UHGV virus genome: UHGV-1360357
Direction: 5' to 3' (one strand)
Origin: a virus
DNA: 29,070 nucleotides
Positions 6,435 to 13,527 of the stretch are shown in pieces. Position numbers and translations under genes: made by a program. Under the pieces are notes generated by a model. That model was not told the origin of the DNA. It was given only the letters and a program-made list of their open reading frames with translations, and ran no database searches. The number at the start of each line of letters is the position of its first letter. Position 1 is the first letter of the stretch.

Positions 6435-6712
6435 TGTACTCCTTCGCGAAATATACGATTATTGACTGGATAGCCTTCCTTCAGGTTTTGCTCATCTGGT
6501 TTTATATGGCTTACAGGAGTGGACAGTGGATTGTCAGTGTATCCTGTAGCAAGGGATGGCGTTGGTGGAACCGAAAGAATAAAAAAGCGCTGGCCTTGGA
6601 TTCGTTTTACGAAGCATTCAATCTTAACAGTCTTCAGCCTGGTTCTGTCATTGTAGTCACCACTCAAAGCGGCATGACCATTCAGATTCATAAACCAAAA
6701 GAGGAAAAATGA
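6434..6712 (+). CDS. hypothetical protein (92 aa) with N-terminal hydrophobic segment
   Basis: ATG 6434 seven nt after AGGAGG; hydrophobic N-terminus (IIDWIAFLQVLLIWFYMAY). Confidence 0.45.
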   Translation: MYSFAKYTIIDWIAFLQVLLIWFYMAYRSGQWIVSVSCSKGWRWWNRKNKKALALDSFYEAFNLNSLQPGSVIVVTTQSGMTIQIHKPKEEK

Positions 6713-6798
6713 TGTGGCCTATATGTGTTAATTGCGGACGGATGTGCCTATCTGGATGGTGCCGAAAGTGCGACAAATGCACGAAGAAAAGACAATAA
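6709..6798 (+). CDS. 29-aa Cys-rich micro-protein (MMWPICVNCGRMCLSGWCRKCDKCTKKRQ)
   Basis: ATG overlapping the upstream stop, AAGAGGAAAA RBS; six Cys in 29 residues (CxxC, CxxxC, CxxC spacing). Confidence 0.3.
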   Translation: MMWPICVNCGRMCLSGWCRKCDKCTKKRQ

Positions 6799-6857
6799 CA
6801 ATCCTCGCACTCGCGGGGATTTCTTTTATCTGAACTCGCTACGGCGGGTTTTGTTTT

Positions 6858-7169
6858 ATGGAGATGATTATGGTCTGTTCAACATTCAACCATCTAACGT
6901 TACAGAAATACCAGCCGGACCCTGAAGATTTATGCTCACTGTGTGGCGGAAATCATGGTAAAGCCGCCATGATCGAATGTAAGGACAAAATCCACATTTG
7001 CCTTAATTGCGTTGATGTCCTCGTTGATATCAAAAATGAGAGAGAAGATAAAAAGCGTAGCGAGGCTGTTCGCGCCTTAGATTCATGGATGCGGGATGGA
7101 TATAGTGCCGCGCAAATTTATGACTTAGCAATATCAAAAGGCGAAATACCAGGAGTACGCATCGAATAA
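6858..7169 (+). CDS. hypothetical zinc-finger protein (about 100 aa; likely start 6864-6870)
   Basis: CSLCGG ... CLNC Cys pairs; GGAG 6 nt upstream of ATG 6870; last gene before xis. Confidence 0.5.
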   Translation: MEMIMVCSTFNHLTLQKYQPDPEDLCSLCGGNHGKAAMIECKDKIHICLNCVDVLVDIKNEREDKKRSEAVRALDSWMRDGYSAAQIYDLAISKGEIPGVRIE

Positions 7170-7210
7170 GACGTAACCAATATTCGAATTGAAGAACTGA
7201 AAGAAAACCA

Positions 7211-7233
7211 AGCCGCCTGATGGCGGTTTTTTC
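7211..7233 (+). terminator. hairpin plus T6, putative intrinsic terminator upstream of xis
   Basis: GCCGCC-tgat-GGCGG(T) stem followed by TTTTTT. Confidence 0.45.
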
Positions 7234-7247
7234 TTGCGTGTAATTGC
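7234..7247 (+). promoter_or_regulatory. cII-type activator box TTGC-N6-TTGC (PI-like int promoter -35 region)
   Basis: TTGCgtgtaaTTGC directly upstream of the xis start, matching the TTGC-N6-TTGC CII recognition pattern known for lambda PI/PRE/PaQ. Confidence 0.5.
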
Positions 7248-7259
7248 GGAGACTTTGCG

Positions 7260-7478
7260 ATGTACTTGACACTTCAGGAGTGGAACGCACGCCAACGACG
7301 CCCAAGAAGCCTTGAAACAGTTCGTCGATGGGTACGCGAGTGCAGGATATTCCCTCATCCGGTTAAGGATGGAAGAGAGTATCTGTTCCACGAATCAGCG
7401 GTAAAGGTTGACTTAAATCGACCAGTAACAGGTAGCCTTTTGAAGAGGATCAGAAATGGGAAGAAGGCGAAGTCATGA
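7260..7478 (+). CDS. xis: excisionase Xis (lambda-type)
   Basis: 72 aa, MYLTLQEWNARQRRPRSLETVRRWVRECRIFPHPVKDGREYLFHESAVKVDL..., recognised as lambda Xis; overlaps the int start as in lambda. Confidence 0.9.
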   Translation: MYLTLQEWNARQRRPRSLETVRRWVRECRIFPHPVKDGREYLFHESAVKVDLNRPVTGSLLKRIRNGKKAKS

Positions 7479-8526
7479 GCGCCGGGATTTACCCCCTAAC
7501 CTTTATATAAGAAACAATGGATATTACTGCTACAGGGACCCAAGGACGGGTAAAGAGTTTGGATTAGGCCGAGACAGGCGAATCGCAATCACTGAAGCTA
7601 TACAGGCCAACATTGAGTTATTTTCAGGACACAAACACAAGCCTCTGACAGCGAGAATCAACAGTGATAATTCCGTTACGTTACATTCATGGCTTGATCG
7701 CTACGAAAAAATCCTGGCCAGCAGAGTAATCAAGCAGAAGACACTCATAAATTACATGAGCAAAATTAAAGCAATAAGGAGGGGTCTGCCTGATGCTCCA
7801 CTTGAAGACATCACCACAAAAGAAATTGCGGCAATGCTCAATGGATACATAGACGAGGGCAAGGCGGCGTCAGCCAAGTTAATCAGATCAACACTGAGCG
7901 ATGCATTCCGAGAGGCAATAGCTGAAGGCCATATAACAACAAACCCTGTCGCTGCCACTCGCGCAGCAAAATCAGAGGTAAGGAGATCAAGACTTACGGC
8001 TGACGAATACCTGAAAATTTATCAAGCAGCAGAATCATCACCATGTTGGCTCAGACTTGCAATGGAACTGGCTGTTGTTACCGGGCAACGAGTTGGTGAT
8101 TTATGCGAAATGAAGTGGTCTGATATCGTAGATGGATATCTTTATGTCGAGCAAAGCAAAACAGGCGTAAAAATTGCCATCCCAACAGCATTGCATGTTG
8201 ATGCTCTCGGAATATCAATGAAGGAAACACTTGATAAATGCAAAGAGATTCTTGGCGGAGAAACCATAATTGCATCTACTCGTCGCGAACCGCTTTCATC
8301 CGGCACAGTATCAAGGTATTTTATGCGCGCACGAAAAGCATCAGGTCTTTCCTTCGAAGGGGATCCGCCTACCTTTCACGAGTTGCGCAGTTTGTCTGCA
8401 AGACTCTATGAGAAGCAGATAAGCGATAAGTTTGCTCAACATCTTCTCGGGCATAAGTCGGACACCATGGCATCACAGTATCGTGATGACAGAGGCAGGG
8501 AGTGGGACAAAATTGAAATCAAATAA
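7456..8526 (+). CDS. int: tyrosine integrase Int (lambda-type)
   Basis: 356 aa; N-terminal arm-binding domain MGRRRSHERRDLPPNLYIRNNGYYCYRDPRTGKEFGLGRDRR, catalytic region with the conserved R...H-x-x-R...Y residues (HELRSLSARL, LLGHKSDTMASQY); recognised as lambda Int. Confidence 0.95.
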   Translation: MGRRRSHERRDLPPNLYIRNNGYYCYRDPRTGKEFGLGRDRRIAITEAIQANIELFSGHKHKPLTARINSDNSVTLHSWLDRYEKILASRVIKQKTLINYMSKIKAIRRGLPDAPLEDITTKEIAAMLNGYIDEGKAASAKLIRSTLSDAFREAIAEGHITTNPVAATRAAKSEVRRSRLTADEYLKIYQAAESSPCWLRLAMELAVVTGQRVGDLCEMKWSDIVDGYLYVEQSKTGVKIAIPTALHVDALGISMKETLDKCKEILGGETIIASTRREPLSSGTVSRYFMRARKASGLSFEGDPPTFHELRSLSARLYEKQISDKFAQHLLGHKSDTMASQYRDDRGREWDKIEIK

Positions 8527-8529
8527 TGA

Positions 8530-8760
8530 TTTTATTTTGACTGATAGTGACCTGTTCGTTGCAACAAATTGATAAGCAATGCTTTTTTATAATGCCAACT
8601 TAGTATAAAAAAGTTGAATGTGAAACGGTAAAAACAATTAATATCAACAGCTTATAATTGATTCAGTCTAAAAAATAGACTGCATAATGCTACAAAACAC
8701 AACATATCCAGTCACTATGAATCAACCACTTAGATGGTATTAGTGACCTGTAACAGAGCA
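8530..8760. other. attP attachment site (P' arm - core - P arm), lambda-type
   Basis: Core TTAGTATAAAAAAG at 8600-8613 (reverse complement of the lambda common core GCTTTTTTATACTAA, one mismatch at the edge); arm-type Int sites containing GTCACTAT on both sides (8539-8554 tandem, 8706-8715, 8741-8750). Both arms look phage-derived. Confidence 0.8.
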
Positions 8761-8802
8761 TTAGCGCAAGGTGATTTTTTTGTCTTCTTGCGCTAATTTT
8801 TT
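8761..8802 (+). terminator. sib / tI retroregulation hairpin and terminator
   Basis: TTAGCGCAAG ... CTTGCGCTAA 10-bp stem followed by TTTTTT, matching the lambda sib/tI sequence as remembered; lies distal to attP relative to int. Confidence 0.75.
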
Positions 8803-8989
8803 GTCAACACACTGGGTTAGCTGAATTTACAACCACGCTCAGTATCTCGATAAGCGCAGAGAAATGATGCAGTGGTGGGCGGACTGGCTTGATGAAAAGG
8901 TTGAGTGAACGACATTATGAACAACAGGAGAACACACAAAACCTCGCAAAAATTACAAAGATTTGTGTGTTAGTACTTATCATTGCGAT

Positions 8990-10936
8990 TTAAAGAATAA
9001 TTCTTTCAACCTTCCAAGTTGCAGATCTACTTCCTGAAATTCCAACTCCATTTGAATCTTTGAGAAGAATTCTAAATGATGTTTCTGTTACCAAATCATA
9101 CGTTGCATTTATTGCTGCGCCATCTCCTATCGATATTGAGATAAAATCAGGCACAACTCCAAGTCCGTGAGTTATTATTTGTCCATTTGAATAAACCCCA
9201 GTTCCTATTTTAGTCGTTGCATACCCGGCATTGTTTGCAAGGACAACATTAACCGAATTTGCTCCTAATTTAGCAATCTTCCTATCAGATGAAATCTCTG
9301 TAGATTGTATTGCATTATTTGAAATAACTGCATCTTTTATAGCCCTGAAATCTCCAGGTGTTCCTGATACAGCATTAACAAGTATTGCATACTGCATACT
9401 TCTATCACTTCTTTTATTGCCGAAAGCATTACCGCAAATTGTTGTCCCGGTAAATCCAGATGCTCCCGTGTTATCAAGAAGAATTCCGCACCTATATGTA
9501 TTTGATGTATCAGAAGGCAAACCTATACCTCTTATGGAATTATTGGATACTATATTATTATCTGGCTTGACATTTGCATTATTGCAGTAAATGCGAATTC
9601 CAACATCACAAAATGCATCTAATACATTATCAGATATAACATTACCCGCTCCCCACACATCAATACCCATAAACGAATCAGCACCATCTCCAAAAAATTT
9701 ATTTTGAGTAACTATTGTTCCGCTACCCCTAATCAATATAGCAGGCCTTGGAATGCTTGAAGTCTTTTTGCTATCATTGTAGCCATGATTATCGTTTATA
9801 TGAGATTCCCCCCCCGCACTATCTATGCAGCAATTACACGAATCTATTATATTTTTATTTATCCTTACATAGACAGAATCGTGTTTTATACCTGTAATAA
9901 AATTTGATATGGAATTTGATACAAAACTAGTTGCCTTACATGGCAATGAAACGCCATGTATAGCGTCCTTAGACGCTCCTATGGCAACAAAATGTATCCC
10001 TGTAACAATTGCTGGGTTCTCATTAGATGATGTGTCACCTATGGTAATAGCAAAAGAATTCTCATCTTCAGGACCATCAATTGTTAATATCGTTTGTGGC
10101 GTATATCCTTGAGATATTTGCGATCCATTTCCTGAACCAAACCCTCTCATACTTACAAAAGATGGGATTCTTAGTTTTTCTGTTACTCTACAGTTGCCCC
10201 CCCAAAAAAATTCCTCTTTAACATGGGCAGCGGCCAGCATGATTGGAATTGTATCATCTTTAACTCCATCAAGCGTCGCTCCATAATTTCTAAGGTCATT
10301 GGTTTCATACCCATTTAAATAACCAATACATCTCCATCCTGTTGAGGTATATCTGGCAAATTTATCATCTGGGGGAACAGTAAAAGGAGGAACTGTCATT
10401 TCTCCTCCAGTTATTTCATTTTCATATACCCAAAACAACCCATCATAATCTTTGATTGCGCATCGGTTGTCTCGAATGATATTTTGCTTGTCATAGTTCC
10501 CACAATATGAAAAACCAGTTGCTAATTTCTGTAGATTTGTTCCTGATGCTGAGTTTATTAATGATGCGCCATTTTCGCTAGTTAATACATTATTTAGAGG
10601 GTCAGGATCATACTTCAGCACATTAGGAAAATAGAACTGCTGCGCACCGTACGCATCATAAACAGCCATAGAATGGCCTTGCACGGTTACGAATTTGGCA
10701 ATCTGTCCGTTATATGCAGGATACCCGCCAGCGTTAATGATGATTGGCTGTGCAACAGGAACGTGAGAACCGTCTTCATTCTCTACATAAACCTGAATCT
10801 GGTTTTCAGGATTTACCGGGTCAGTGTCAATTTTTCCGATATAAATTTTGCCATTGGCAACCGCTTTAAAAGAACGCGCCATAGTGAAGAGTTGCGAAGG
10901 CATGCTTACCACAACATTTGCGGTGATATCTGTCAT
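8990..10936 (-). CDS. tailspike protein (P22 gp9 family; conserved head-binding domain, divergent receptor-binding beta-helix)
   Basis: 648 aa; first ~115 residues ([58 protein letters not shown]...) match the P22/HK620-type tailspike head-binding domain; the rest is Asn/Gly/Ser-rich with beta-helix-like repeats but unrelated to the P22 endorhamnosidase domain. Confidence 0.9.
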
Positions 10937-11036: not shown

Positions 11037-11993
11037 TCAGTAGTTATGTACTGAAGGAGGTAATTCTTTATTCTTAAGTCTCATCCATGCGGAAAGATTC
11101 GTTGGTCCGTCTGGCTCATTGATATCAACATCTCGTGTGTGATTGATTAAAACGTCTCTCGCCATATCGATAATACGGGAGAACTCATAACCGCAGTCAT
11201 GACATCTGCCGGAATAGTTCGATTGAATTTGTTTTAGCGCCGGATACAATTCGCGGAATAATGCCTGTGAGCGGTTGGCATAATCCCATAACCATACAAG
11301 GCTGTTTGCTTCTTTTGCAGAAAGCTCGTCGGTTTTCTTCTCTTGTTTGCCGATAAATTCACCTTCAAGCACTACCCTGTGGATGTACTCTACGGCCAGC
11401 GGGATTTGTTCAATTGAAAGTTCATCAATGCTGTCAATGCCAAAACGCTGATGAACCATATTGTATGCATCGTCATAGCGAAGTCCTTTCTTTCCTACCA
11501 GCATGTTTACTGCATCGCGTAGCGGTGTGCGTTCAGCTACTGAAGTTTTACCGCCAATAGCCTTCCTCTCTTGTGTGGCAGTAACTATTGCGTCATATGC
11601 GCGGATAACCTTCAGCGCAAATGCTGCGCTAATCCACATGGCGTAGGAGTAAACAAGCTCCTTGCACACGTATGTTCCACCATATCTACCTTTCTTAGAA
11701 ATGACGGGATTCTTATTCTGCATATCCGCAGAATTAAAAATTTCATTAATCAATTCAATAGTTTCATTTCTACGCATGAAGAAAGCTGGCTGATGTTTTT
11801 CCTCCTTTCCAGACGCTACATGAAGGTCATTAAGCGAGTAACGACCCTCTGAATCCATATGAATCTTGACGTCAGAAATGATGATGCTATTAGTGCAATT
11901 TACAGTTGACTTTGCTAAGCTTGACATATCAATAATACCTCGTAAGTTTTGTTGATACCGAAGCCCTGACTGTTCCCGCAGTTGGGGCTTCAC
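11037..11993 (-). CDS. ant: KilA-N domain antirepressor-like protein at the ant position
   Basis: 318 aa; N-terminal KilA-N-like motif (...[13 protein letters not shown] ... [23 protein letters not shown]); located downstream of arc and upstream of the tailspike as P22 ant is; the symbol is by position, orthology to P22 Ant unverified. Confidence 0.6.
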
Positions 11994-12211
11994 TGTTTTT
12001 GTAAGTCACTGTAGCTATAAAGCCACTGACCACTCATTTTTGATTTGATTGACTCTACTGAGTCACGGCAAGGAATGATTCCGCCTGACATCATTCTGAT
12101 CTCCGTAAATTCACCACTCCTTATCGATTCAATGCCATCAATGTTAACTAAAGATTTACCTCTACCAAGTGCATTCTCATAGCCAATCTCATCAACCTCA
12201 ATAAATCTCAT
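11990..12211 (-). CDS. hypothetical protein (73 aa) inserted between arc and ant
   Basis: ATGA overlaps at both ends (with the arc stop and the ant start) indicate translational coupling; no recognisable domain. Confidence 0.5.
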
Positions 12212-12453: not shown

Positions 12454-12705
12454 ATGTCTGATCGTAAGTACAAAAACCCTCAAGTGAATCTGAGGCTTCC
12501 TGTAGAGATAAAGGAACGTCTTATTGAACTGGCTGAGGCTAATTCTCGTTCATTAAATGCTGAGATGGTAGCAGCACTTGAGGCATGGACTGAAAAAAAT
12601 AAACATATTCAAGCACTAGATCTTGCAACTATAGCATCGCGGTTGATAGAGCTTGAGCATGAGGTTGAGAAGTTAAAATCTATACATGGCAACAGTGAAA
12701 AATGA
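12454..12705 (+). CDS. mnt: Mnt-like ribbon-helix-helix repressor
   Basis: 83 aa; PQVNLRLPVEIKERLIELAEANSRSLNAEMVAALEAW aligns with P22 Mnt (PHFNFRMPMEVREKLKFRAEANGRSMNSELLQIVQDAL); divergent from arc as in P22 immI. Confidence 0.75.
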   Translation: MSDRKYKNPQVNLRLPVEIKERLIELAEANSRSLNAEMVAALEAWTEKNKHIQALDLATIASRLIELEHEVEKLKSIHGNSEK

Positions 12706-13016
12706 AACGTATCGCTATTTTGTTAATATTGTTCTTCTCTACAATAGTTTTCGCCAAACCAAAATCAGATAATGGCGATCTTAAAGGCCTGCAAGAACTC
12801 ATGATAACTTCGAAATTTGCTGGCATGTGCGGCACAATCAAACAAATGGCAACATTTCAAGAATCAACAAAAATGCCTGGCGGAGATGAGTTCTTACAGC
12901 GTTTTCTGACCACAGAGCAAGCAAGACTAGGAATGAATCCACAGGAATTTCTTGAAGCATGCCAGAAGTCAATTTCAGCTTATACCAATTATTACAATCT
13001 AACTTCTGATAAATAA
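12702..13016 (+). CDS. secreted (signal-peptide) protein, 104 aa, unknown function
   Basis: ATGA-coupled to mnt; N-terminal signal peptide MKRIAILLILFFSTIVFA with an AxA-like cleavage site; mature part contains two Cys. Confidence 0.65.
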   Translation: MKRIAILLILFFSTIVFAKPKSDNGDLKGLQELMITSKFAGMCGTIKQMATFQESTKMPGGDEFLQRFLTTEQARLGMNPQEFLEACQKSISAYTNYYNLTSDK

Positions 13017-13041: not shown

Positions 13042-13527
13042 ATGAAAAAATCACTATTAATTGTCCCGCTTCTGCTGGCTGGATGCGCAAAAGTAAGTGA
13101 CTACCAAGCAAGTTGCGAACAACGCTATCCAAAGCTTAGTGATATGGCTAATTGCCTTGATGCCAGCGTGAAGAACGACTCACGCATGGCATCAGCACCA
13201 ACACCTAAGCTGTATGTCCTTGCTGCGAAGATGCTCGGGCAAGGTGTCGATCAAGGCAAGATAAGTGACGCACAGGCAAGACTTGAGCTTCAGAATCTTT
13301 ATGTTCAATTACAAAGCCAAGAACAAGCCCAACAAATAGCACAAAGCCAAGCATTCCAGCAGGCTTTATTGAATTATCAGGCTGTAAACACAATGCAAGC
13401 GATCGAGCAAAAAGCGCGCCAGCCTGTTATAACTCAACCTTACCCAACACGCGTTGACACATATACAAACTGCAATTCAGGTTTTGGAAACACGGTAACA
13501 TGCAACAGTAGCAGTAATATCAGGTAG
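13042..13527 (+). CDS. lipoprotein (lipobox LLAGC, +2 Ala), 161 aa, Gln-rich
   Basis: MKKSLLIVPLLLAGC lipoprotein signal; residue after the Cys is Ala (not Asp), consistent with outer-membrane sorting; Gln-rich helical middle, Cys/Asn-rich C-terminus. The RBS is weak or distant. Confidence 0.65.
   Translation: MKKSLLIVPLLLAGCAKVSDYQASCEQRYPKLSDMANCLDASVKNDSRMASAPTPKLYVLAAKMLGQGVDQGKISDAQARLELQNLYVQLQSQEQAQQIAQSQAFQQALLNYQAVNTMQAIEQKARQPVITQPYPTRVDTYTNCNSGFGNTVTCNSSSNIR

Follow-up and report, generated by a model that had tools for sequence, protein, structure and literature searches.

A lambda/434-type integration and excision cassette with an intact attP in the P22-like phage genome UHGV-1360357

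The general architecture of the phage lambda attachment site attP has been described (PMC4880445), the bacterial attachment site attB of phage HK022 lies between torS and torT (PMC6814406), and Huey, a Lederbergvirus-type phage, forms turbid plaques on Escherichia coli K-12, an indication of lysogeny (PMC11990801). The occurrence of a lambda-type recombination cassette in P22-like phages is already known from Huey, JEP4 and vB_EcoP-720R6 in GenBank and from many prophages. Here, we analyzed the virus genome UHGV-1360357, a stretch of 29,070 nucleotides that we refer to as the window, and found that it contains an intact copy of the lambda integration and excision module (pI, xis, int, attP and sib) within a P22-like genome; the mosaic is real but ordinary. 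From position 7169 to about 8905, the window very probably holds a complete and apparently functional cassette of the lambda/434 type, carried by a temperate P22-like podovirus related to Sf6 and CUS-3 (Lederbergvirus). The elements are arranged in the order t'I, pI, xis, int, P'3-P'2-P'1-H'-C'-O-C-H2-F/X2/X1-P2-H1-P1, sib/tI and the 3' stub of an IntS-type integrase gene, and every feature testable by sequence assigns the cassette to the lambda/434 Int-Xis-attP family.

A megablast search with window positions 7211-8810 against 50,697 phage records gave a match to lambda (J02459) of 1599 bases with 97.6% identity (E = 0). Query coverage reached at least 80% in 54 records, and 434, HK97, HK106, HK629/630 and others also matched the cassette, with identities of 96.8-98%. 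By local BLAST, the lambda-similar block spans window positions 7169-8806, corresponding to lambda 29169-27534 on the reverse strand, with an identity of 97.6%. Along this block, identity to lambda was 98.9% in the terminator/pI region, 96.3% in xis, 99.6% in int and 100% in the P' arm; the core showed two differences, the stretch of the P arm between the C site of the core and X1 dropped to 75%, and the values rose again to 96.7% in P2-H1-P1 and 96.8% in sib/tI. The original prediction, made from the sequence alone, had proposed a lambda-type PI-xis-int-attP-sib cassette at this place and had named low identity in an alignment to lambda as the finding that would speak against it; the identity found was high, both in the DNA and in the Int and Xis proteins (Table 1).

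The end of xis and the start of int overlap by 23 bases, as they do in lambda, and both products fall in the Pfam families expected of the lambda-like proteins they had been taken for. In Int, the domains Arm-DNA-bind_1 (PF09003, E = 7e-33) and Phage_integrase (PF00589, E = 2.9e-40) were recognized, and in the alignment to lambda Int the catalytic residues R212, K235, H308, R311, H333 and Y342 are all unchanged. Residues N99, S282, G283, R287 and E319, at positions that we take to separate lambda from HK022 core specificity, are also the same as in lambda. The substitutions H164P and I248V are common natural alleles of Int, present also in 434, Huey, JEP4 and E. coli ExPEC XM, and G59S is a common natural allele of Xis. 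Five minus-strand open reading frames (ORFs) over xis and int (7030-7305, 7134-7391, 7752-7958, 8078-8275 and 8142-8306) were judged spurious, because they run antisense to genes 96-99.6% identical to the well-characterized xis and int of lambda and because neither the lambda record nor the curated 434 record annotates a minus-strand gene there.

As for attP, consensus scans (MAGTCACTAT for arm-type, WATCAANNNNTTR for IHF and CAACTTNNT for core-type sites) located five arm-type sites, three IHF sites and both core-type sites in the window and returned the same set, in the same relative arrangement, for lambda. The arm-type sites were found on both arms, as predicted, with P'1 to P'3 on the P' arm and P1 and P2 on the P arm, and with H', C'-O-C, H2, the X/F region and H1 also present, attP is intact (Table 1). 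The original claim that the core matches lambda holds for the 7-bp overlap, which is identical not only to that of lambda but also to those in attL and attR of prophages at the lambda attB; the 15-bp common core, however, is one base off, with T at window position 8614 where lambda has C (in lambda orientation, a G-to-A change at -8). It lies outside the overlap and converts the C site from CAGCTTTTT to CAACTTTTT, which fits the core-type consensus perfectly. The substitutions between the core and X1 spare the IHF consensus positions, and most of them recur in at least one of 434, Huey and JEP4. The X1 sequence is that of lambda, and X2 carries two substitutions with respect to lambda, found also in 434, Huey, JEP4, ExPEC XM and the attR of a prophage in E. 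coli OkiPb01694. For the Xis and Fis sites, we used the names and positions that we take to be those of lambda attP.

Table 1. Features of the cassette and its surroundings, in window coordinates.
Feature	Position	Strand	Basis or remark
Short lambda-like segment (lambda 29361-29288, downstream of ea8.5)	6795-6868	+	98.6% identity to lambda
Early-left flanking ORF, 103 amino acids, Sf6 gene 19 homologue	6858-7169	+	PHROG 3680, unknown function; outside the cassette
Boundary segment common to lambda, 434-type modules and Sf6	7169-7241 (end approximate)	+	Three-way alignment
pI promoter and cII-type activator site, overlapping the xis start codon	7234-7265	+	Mapped from the annotated pI/CII site of phage 434 (OL657226)
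xis, excisionase gene, 72 amino acids	7260-7478	+	70/72 identical to lambda Xis; Pfam PF07825 Exc, E = 1.9e-40
int, lambda-type tyrosine integrase gene, 356 amino acids	7456-8526	+	353/356 identical to lambda Int; Pfam domains
P'3 arm-type Int site	8523-8532	-	Consensus scan
P'2 arm-type Int site	8534-8543	-	Consensus scan
P'1 arm-type Int site	8544-8553	-	Consensus scan
H' IHF site, TATCAATTTGTTG	8562-8574	-	Exact match to WATCAANNNNTTR, position homologous to that in lambda
attP core, whole	8596-8616		
C' core-type site, CAACTTAGT	8596-8604		Within the attP core
7-bp overlap, GTATAAA (TTTATAC in lambda orientation)	8603-8609		Identical to lambda
C core-type site, bottom strand CAACTTTTT	8608-8616		CAGCTTTTT in lambda
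H2 IHF site, TATCAACAGCTTA	8642-8654	+	Exact consensus match at the homologous position; lambda differs at N positions only
Xis (X1, X1.5, X2) and Fis binding region of the P arm, predicted	8660-8705	-	Sequence identity only
P2 arm-type site, CAGTCACTAT	8709-8718		Consensus scan
H1 IHF site	8720-8732		Consensus scan
P1 arm-type site, bottom strand AGGTCACTAA	8740-8749		Consensus scan
sib retroregulator and tI terminator	8753-8806	+	RNA fold
3' stub (last 27 codons and stop) of an IntS/Sf6/HK620-type integrase gene	8825-8908	+	Pseudogene remnant
Tailspike gene, 648 amino acids, late-gene side of attP	8990-10936	-	P22 head-binding domain, Pfam PF09008, E = 1.6e-65; PHROG tailspike families
Antirepressor-like gene	11037-11993	-	KilA-N and P22_AR_C domains; 5' end overlaps sar
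sar RNA, P22 immI antisense RNA	11929-11994	+	Rfam RF00262, 61.7 bits against a gathering score of 43

Both the P' and the P arm flank the core, and phage genes lie on each side, int on one and the stub and tailspike gene on the other; therefore, the window sequence is in the attP configuration, that of a phage, circular or replicative form, and not that of attL or attR. We searched 5426 complete E. coli genomes for the P arm, using window positions 8596-8745 (150 bases) as the query, and for the junction between tI and the stub. A lambda-type P arm was found in 1465 of them, roughly a quarter, and five chromosomes matched the query at 149 of its 150 positions. In E. coli 3CM and STEC313 this P-arm allele stands directly beside ybhB-bioA as attR, with the -8 variant present, and the single mismatch is the base expected from the change of C' to B'. 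In OkiPb01694, a complete P22-like prophage of 40 kb, which has the same tailspike, a lambda-type int and xis, and the stub, is inserted between ybhC and ybhB, such that its ends are attL (ybhC-BOP') and attR (POB'-ybhB). The unchanged overlap and the location of these related prophages support the lambda attB between ybhC and ybhB-bioA as the probable integration site, which agrees, on comparative evidence, with the gal-bio site originally predicted.

It had also been claimed that the sequence does not represent an integrated prophage. This stands as regards attL and attR, but a chromosomal origin of another kind has to be considered, namely that the window comes from a bacterial chromosome with tandem prophage copies (by polylysogeny, duplication or assembly collapse) and that its attP is an internal junction. 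The chromosome of ExPEC XM (NZ_CP025328.1, 814748-863221) holds exactly such an int-attP-stub-tailspike junction inside a tandem, partly deleted and rearranged duplication of a P22-like prophage, so that an attP junction alone is no proof of a free phage genome, and both ends of the window do lie inside phage genes. Nevertheless, we consider a tandem origin unlikely: ExPEC XM is a single case among the genomes inspected, phage records show the same layout, Huey and JEP4 as circular records, and a continuous phage gene order of 29 kb across attP is what is expected of a virion or circular genome. The tandem of ExPEC XM may itself reflect genuine polylysogeny or have arisen during assembly.

Because the cassette of the window is nearly identical to that of lambda, we infer how it would work, both in its recombination activity and in its regulation by pI/cII and by sib/RNase III. 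Int and host IHF would assemble on attP and carry out strand exchange with the E. coli lambda attB (ybhC / ybhB-bioA) across the sequence TTTATAC, whereas Xis and Fis would turn the reaction toward excision. While lysogeny is being established, pI would supply Int without Xis. In the attP form, where sib is placed downstream of int, read-through transcripts from pL would be degraded, such that Int would be limited in lytic growth.

At the left side of the cassette, the cII-type site with the configuration TTGC-N6-TTGC reads TTGCGTGTAATTGC (7234-7247), and the promoter stretch shows no differences from lambda, so pI is presumably activated by a cII/C1 protein. A scan for sigma-70 promoters over 6700-9100 returned one site, against 4.8 expected by chance, and did not detect pI, as is expected of an activator-dependent promoter. 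Aligned with lambda and Sf6, the window follows Sf6 up to 7169 and lambda from about 7242, and over the roughly 70 bp in between all three sequences agree. This boundary segment contains the t'I terminator hairpin (7210-7229) with its T-run and the first TTGC of the cII site, and the Sf6 record labels the region 'bsq2; boundary sequence' and 'pI' (putative). Because lambda, Sf6 and the window agree there, the left crossover lies within pre-existing homology; and as Sf6 shares this region up to the first half of the cII site, pI cannot serve as a mark of lambda origin.

The prediction that the left flank consists of non-lambda early ORFs was correct only in part. The plus-strand genes left of xis are indeed early-left-operon ORFs of the Sf6/HK620 kind, Sf6 matches window positions 6794-7247 at 96.5% identity, and the ORF at 6858-7169, for which no Pfam match was found, marks the Sf6-like side of the junction; however, the segment 6795-6868 is lambda-like and the boundary segment is common to lambda and Sf6. 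The former segment is also present in Sf6, JEP4, 434 and ExPEC XM, and a terminator scan placed two terminator-like hairpins in it (6800-6821 and 6832-6851). Two small cysteine-rich ORFs with CxxC pairs lie on the plus strand directly upstream of the cassette (6712-6798 and 6858-7169). In 434, Huey and ExPEC XM there is an extra ORF (ORF114 in 434, about 345 bp) just upstream of t'I/pI, at the place of window positions 7229-7236, and its ends show a short repeat of terminator-proximal sequence; the window, lambda, JEP4 and Sf6 lack this ORF, and the site looks like a moron insertion point.

At the right side, the sib/tI hairpin resembles that of lambda, as had been noticed. It folds at -29.1 kcal/mol (z = -4.8), with a G+C-rich core stem of 12 bp (8760-8796) and a T-run (8797-8802) that is taken into the extended stem; lambda has the same stem and architecture at -25.6 kcal/mol, with a loop two T shorter. 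A scan with Rfam for a curated sib or another RNA family gave no match within the cassette, the only match in the window being sar. Downstream of tI, window positions 8825-8902 align at 96% identity with the final 78 bases of Sf6 gene 16 (int), and the translation, IYNHAQYLDKRREMMQWWADWLDEKVE followed by the stop, matches the C-terminus of Sf6 Int. An in-frame stop lies upstream and only the last 27 codons are left of what would be a full-length IntS/Sf6/HK620-type frame, so the stub is a remnant and not a gene.

The same succession of tI, linker and stub follows the cassette in the siphoviruses 434, ev099 and mEp332, in Huey, JEP4 and vB_EcoP-720R6 and in ExPEC XM, and the junction of tI and stub was present in 737 of the 5426 E. 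coli genomes; the cassettes compared diverge only downstream of the stub. Because of this distribution, the circulating unit extends from about 7169 to 8905. The original prediction had placed a mosaic junction near 8805, and similarity to lambda does end at 8806, but the module in 434, Huey and JEP4 continues to about 8902. It would be tempting to read the stub as proof that an incoming lambda cassette replaced an Sf6-type int in an ancestor of the window phage. We rejected this reading, since siphovirus 434 and the 737 E. coli genomes have the same junction; the stub travels with the cassette and therefore can neither date nor orient an exchange in the lineage of the window. A relic of a tRNA-type attachment site near the stub was also considered, and ARAGORN found no tRNA in the window; as the Sf6 attP is located upstream of int, a relic attP would have gone with the replaced segment.

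The cassette occupies the slot in which Sf6/HK620-type phages keep their own attP and IntS integrase. Both the left boundary sequence and the 3' end of int are present in IntS-type phages; the terminator/pI boundary on the left and the int stub on the right could therefore act as homology arms for swaps of the whole module in the lambdoid/P22-like pool, presumably by double crossover. A further proposal is that the stub and boundary pair is maintained for this role, in a portable cassette swapped among siphoviral and podoviral lambdoid phages or, as a lesser option, that the -8 base, Int G91V and Xis P33H jointly tune the efficiency of recombination. We regard this proposal as quite improbable. 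A role as homology arm is plausible only, and selection for it is unsupported because the stub shows signs of neutral decay.

Several observations do weigh against the view of a complete and working cassette with homology arms. The stub of 434 has lost its stop codon, which is the sign of neutral decay just mentioned. Int G91V is private to the window, Xis P33H is private to the window among the seven alleles compared, and the exact Int sequence of the window had no record in an exact-sequence look-up. The genes for the cII/C1 activator and for an N-type antiterminator, both needed for the regulation proposed above, lie outside the window, and the attP configuration is the sole basis for speaking of a phage form. 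Some of these points could be taken to mean that the cassette is a decaying, non-functional remnant in which G91V, P33H, the -8 base of the C site and the longer sib loop disable integration or its control; three of these substitutions are private or rare. However, both reading frames are intact with the catalytic residues kept, all consensus positions of the binding sites are kept, the sib stem is intact, and the -8 change brings the C site closer to the core-type consensus and occurs in the integrated attR of at least five E. coli genomes, such that decay appears very improbable to us. Lastly, the idea that the site is one end (attL or attR) of a single integrated prophage and borders bacterial DNA has practically no probability left and is already refuted by the sequence: no bacterial DNA, which the original prediction had named as counter-evidence, adjoins the core, the P' arm (100% lambda) and a P arm with all its sites flank it between phage genes, and it is precisely at the core boundary that true attL and attR sites depart from the window sequence.

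The genome around the complete lambda/434-type cassette is P22-like, as originally claimed. From about 8.6 kb on, it comprises terminase, portal, scaffold, coat, gp4/gp10/gp26-type, ejection-protein and tailspike genes, and over 8.6-25 kb the structural genes are about 94-95% identical in nucleotides to Huey, JEP4, Sf101, CUS-3 and Sf6 (Lederbergvirus). The P22-type virion module together with a PF09008 tailspike places the phage in Lederbergvirus. The best phage record for the whole window reached 49% query coverage at 94.8% identity, and the window phage itself was absent from the collections searched. The immI-type region encodes sar and Arc-like and antirepressor-like (P22_AR_C/KilA-N) proteins, as detected with Rfam and Pfam.

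The receptor-binding part of the tailspike gene is low in G+C content (36-40%), and its best PHROG family is annotated as a colanic-acid-degrading tailspike. Nearly the same tailspike occurs in prophages at two attB sites, that of lambda in OkiPb01694 and that of HK022 in E. coli A35, and in both prophages its gene adjoins attR. No defence-system match was obtained with PADLOC for the unannotated flanking ORFs beside attP. Two plus-strand ORFs between the Arc-like and ejection-protein genes, 12702-13016 (104 amino acids) and 13042-13527 (161 amino acids), match PHROG families of unknown function strongly but gave nothing with Pfam or PADLOC; the counterpart slot in OkiPb01694 contains a Rap1a/Tai-family immunity protein. 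These two ORFs may be morons or superinfection-exclusion genes.

The finding has little import beyond correct annotation. The phage would be a temperate P22-like podovirus that should lysogenize E. coli at the lambda attB (ybhC/ybhB), and it should be treated as temperate, for example, in screening for phage therapy. As P-arm-bearing prophages occupy the lambda attB in about a quarter of the complete E. coli genomes, lysogenization may be limited or tandem insertions may result. In addition, the locus provides a worked example, from the lambdoid/P22-like gene pool, of modules being exchanged where short boundary sequences are shared.

Compared with the known systems, the window shares with lambda (J02459, 27534-29169) the gene order, the xis/int overlap, 99% of Int and 97% of Xis, the P' arm, the overlap and the sib/tI hairpin; it differs in the -8 base of the C site, in the stretch from the core to X1 and in the length of the sib loop. 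Beyond 8806, lambda continues with its b region, whereas the window has the IntS-type stub, and the virion genes of the window are podoviral and P22-like. Phage 434 (M60848; OL657226) is alike in the cassette (96.8-97.2%), in P164 and V248 of Int, S59 of Xis and some P-arm substitutions, and in the stub after tI; over the core plus P arm, its identity to the window is 88.5%, against 83.4% for lambda. Unlike the window, 434 is a siphovirus, has ORF114 between the upstream segment and t'I/pI, carries a different allele of the linker between tI and the stub, and has lost the stop of the latter. Huey (PQ850609), JEP4 (MT740315) and vB_EcoP-720R6 (ON470605) have the same xis-int-attP-sib-stub cassette set between the early-left operon and the tailspike side in a Lederbergvirus-type genome. 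They match only about half of the window, at about 94-95%, have other tailspikes and morons next to attP, as in Huey, where a UmuD-like gene lies between stub and tailspike, and their P-arm alleles are 85-87% identical to window positions 8596-8745.

The Sf6/HK620 module lies in the same slot, between the early-left operon and the tailspike side, and shares with the window the left t'I/pI boundary and the last 78 or so bases of int. In contrast, its integrase belongs to an unrelated family branch, its attP is different and placed upstream of int, and its attB is also different, presumably the tRNA gene argW, with Kapi1 as an example. Finally, E. coli A35 (NZ_CP028740.1, 1859497-1872127) carries beside torT a P22-like prophage with the same tailspike, stub, sib and P1-H1-P2; from 8669 onward, that is, in the P1-H1-P2 part of the P arm, it is 98.4% identical to the window, whereas its core and core-proximal P arm differ and are of the HK022 type by location. 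Therefore, lambda-type and HK022-type specificities are exchanged within an otherwise common cassette.

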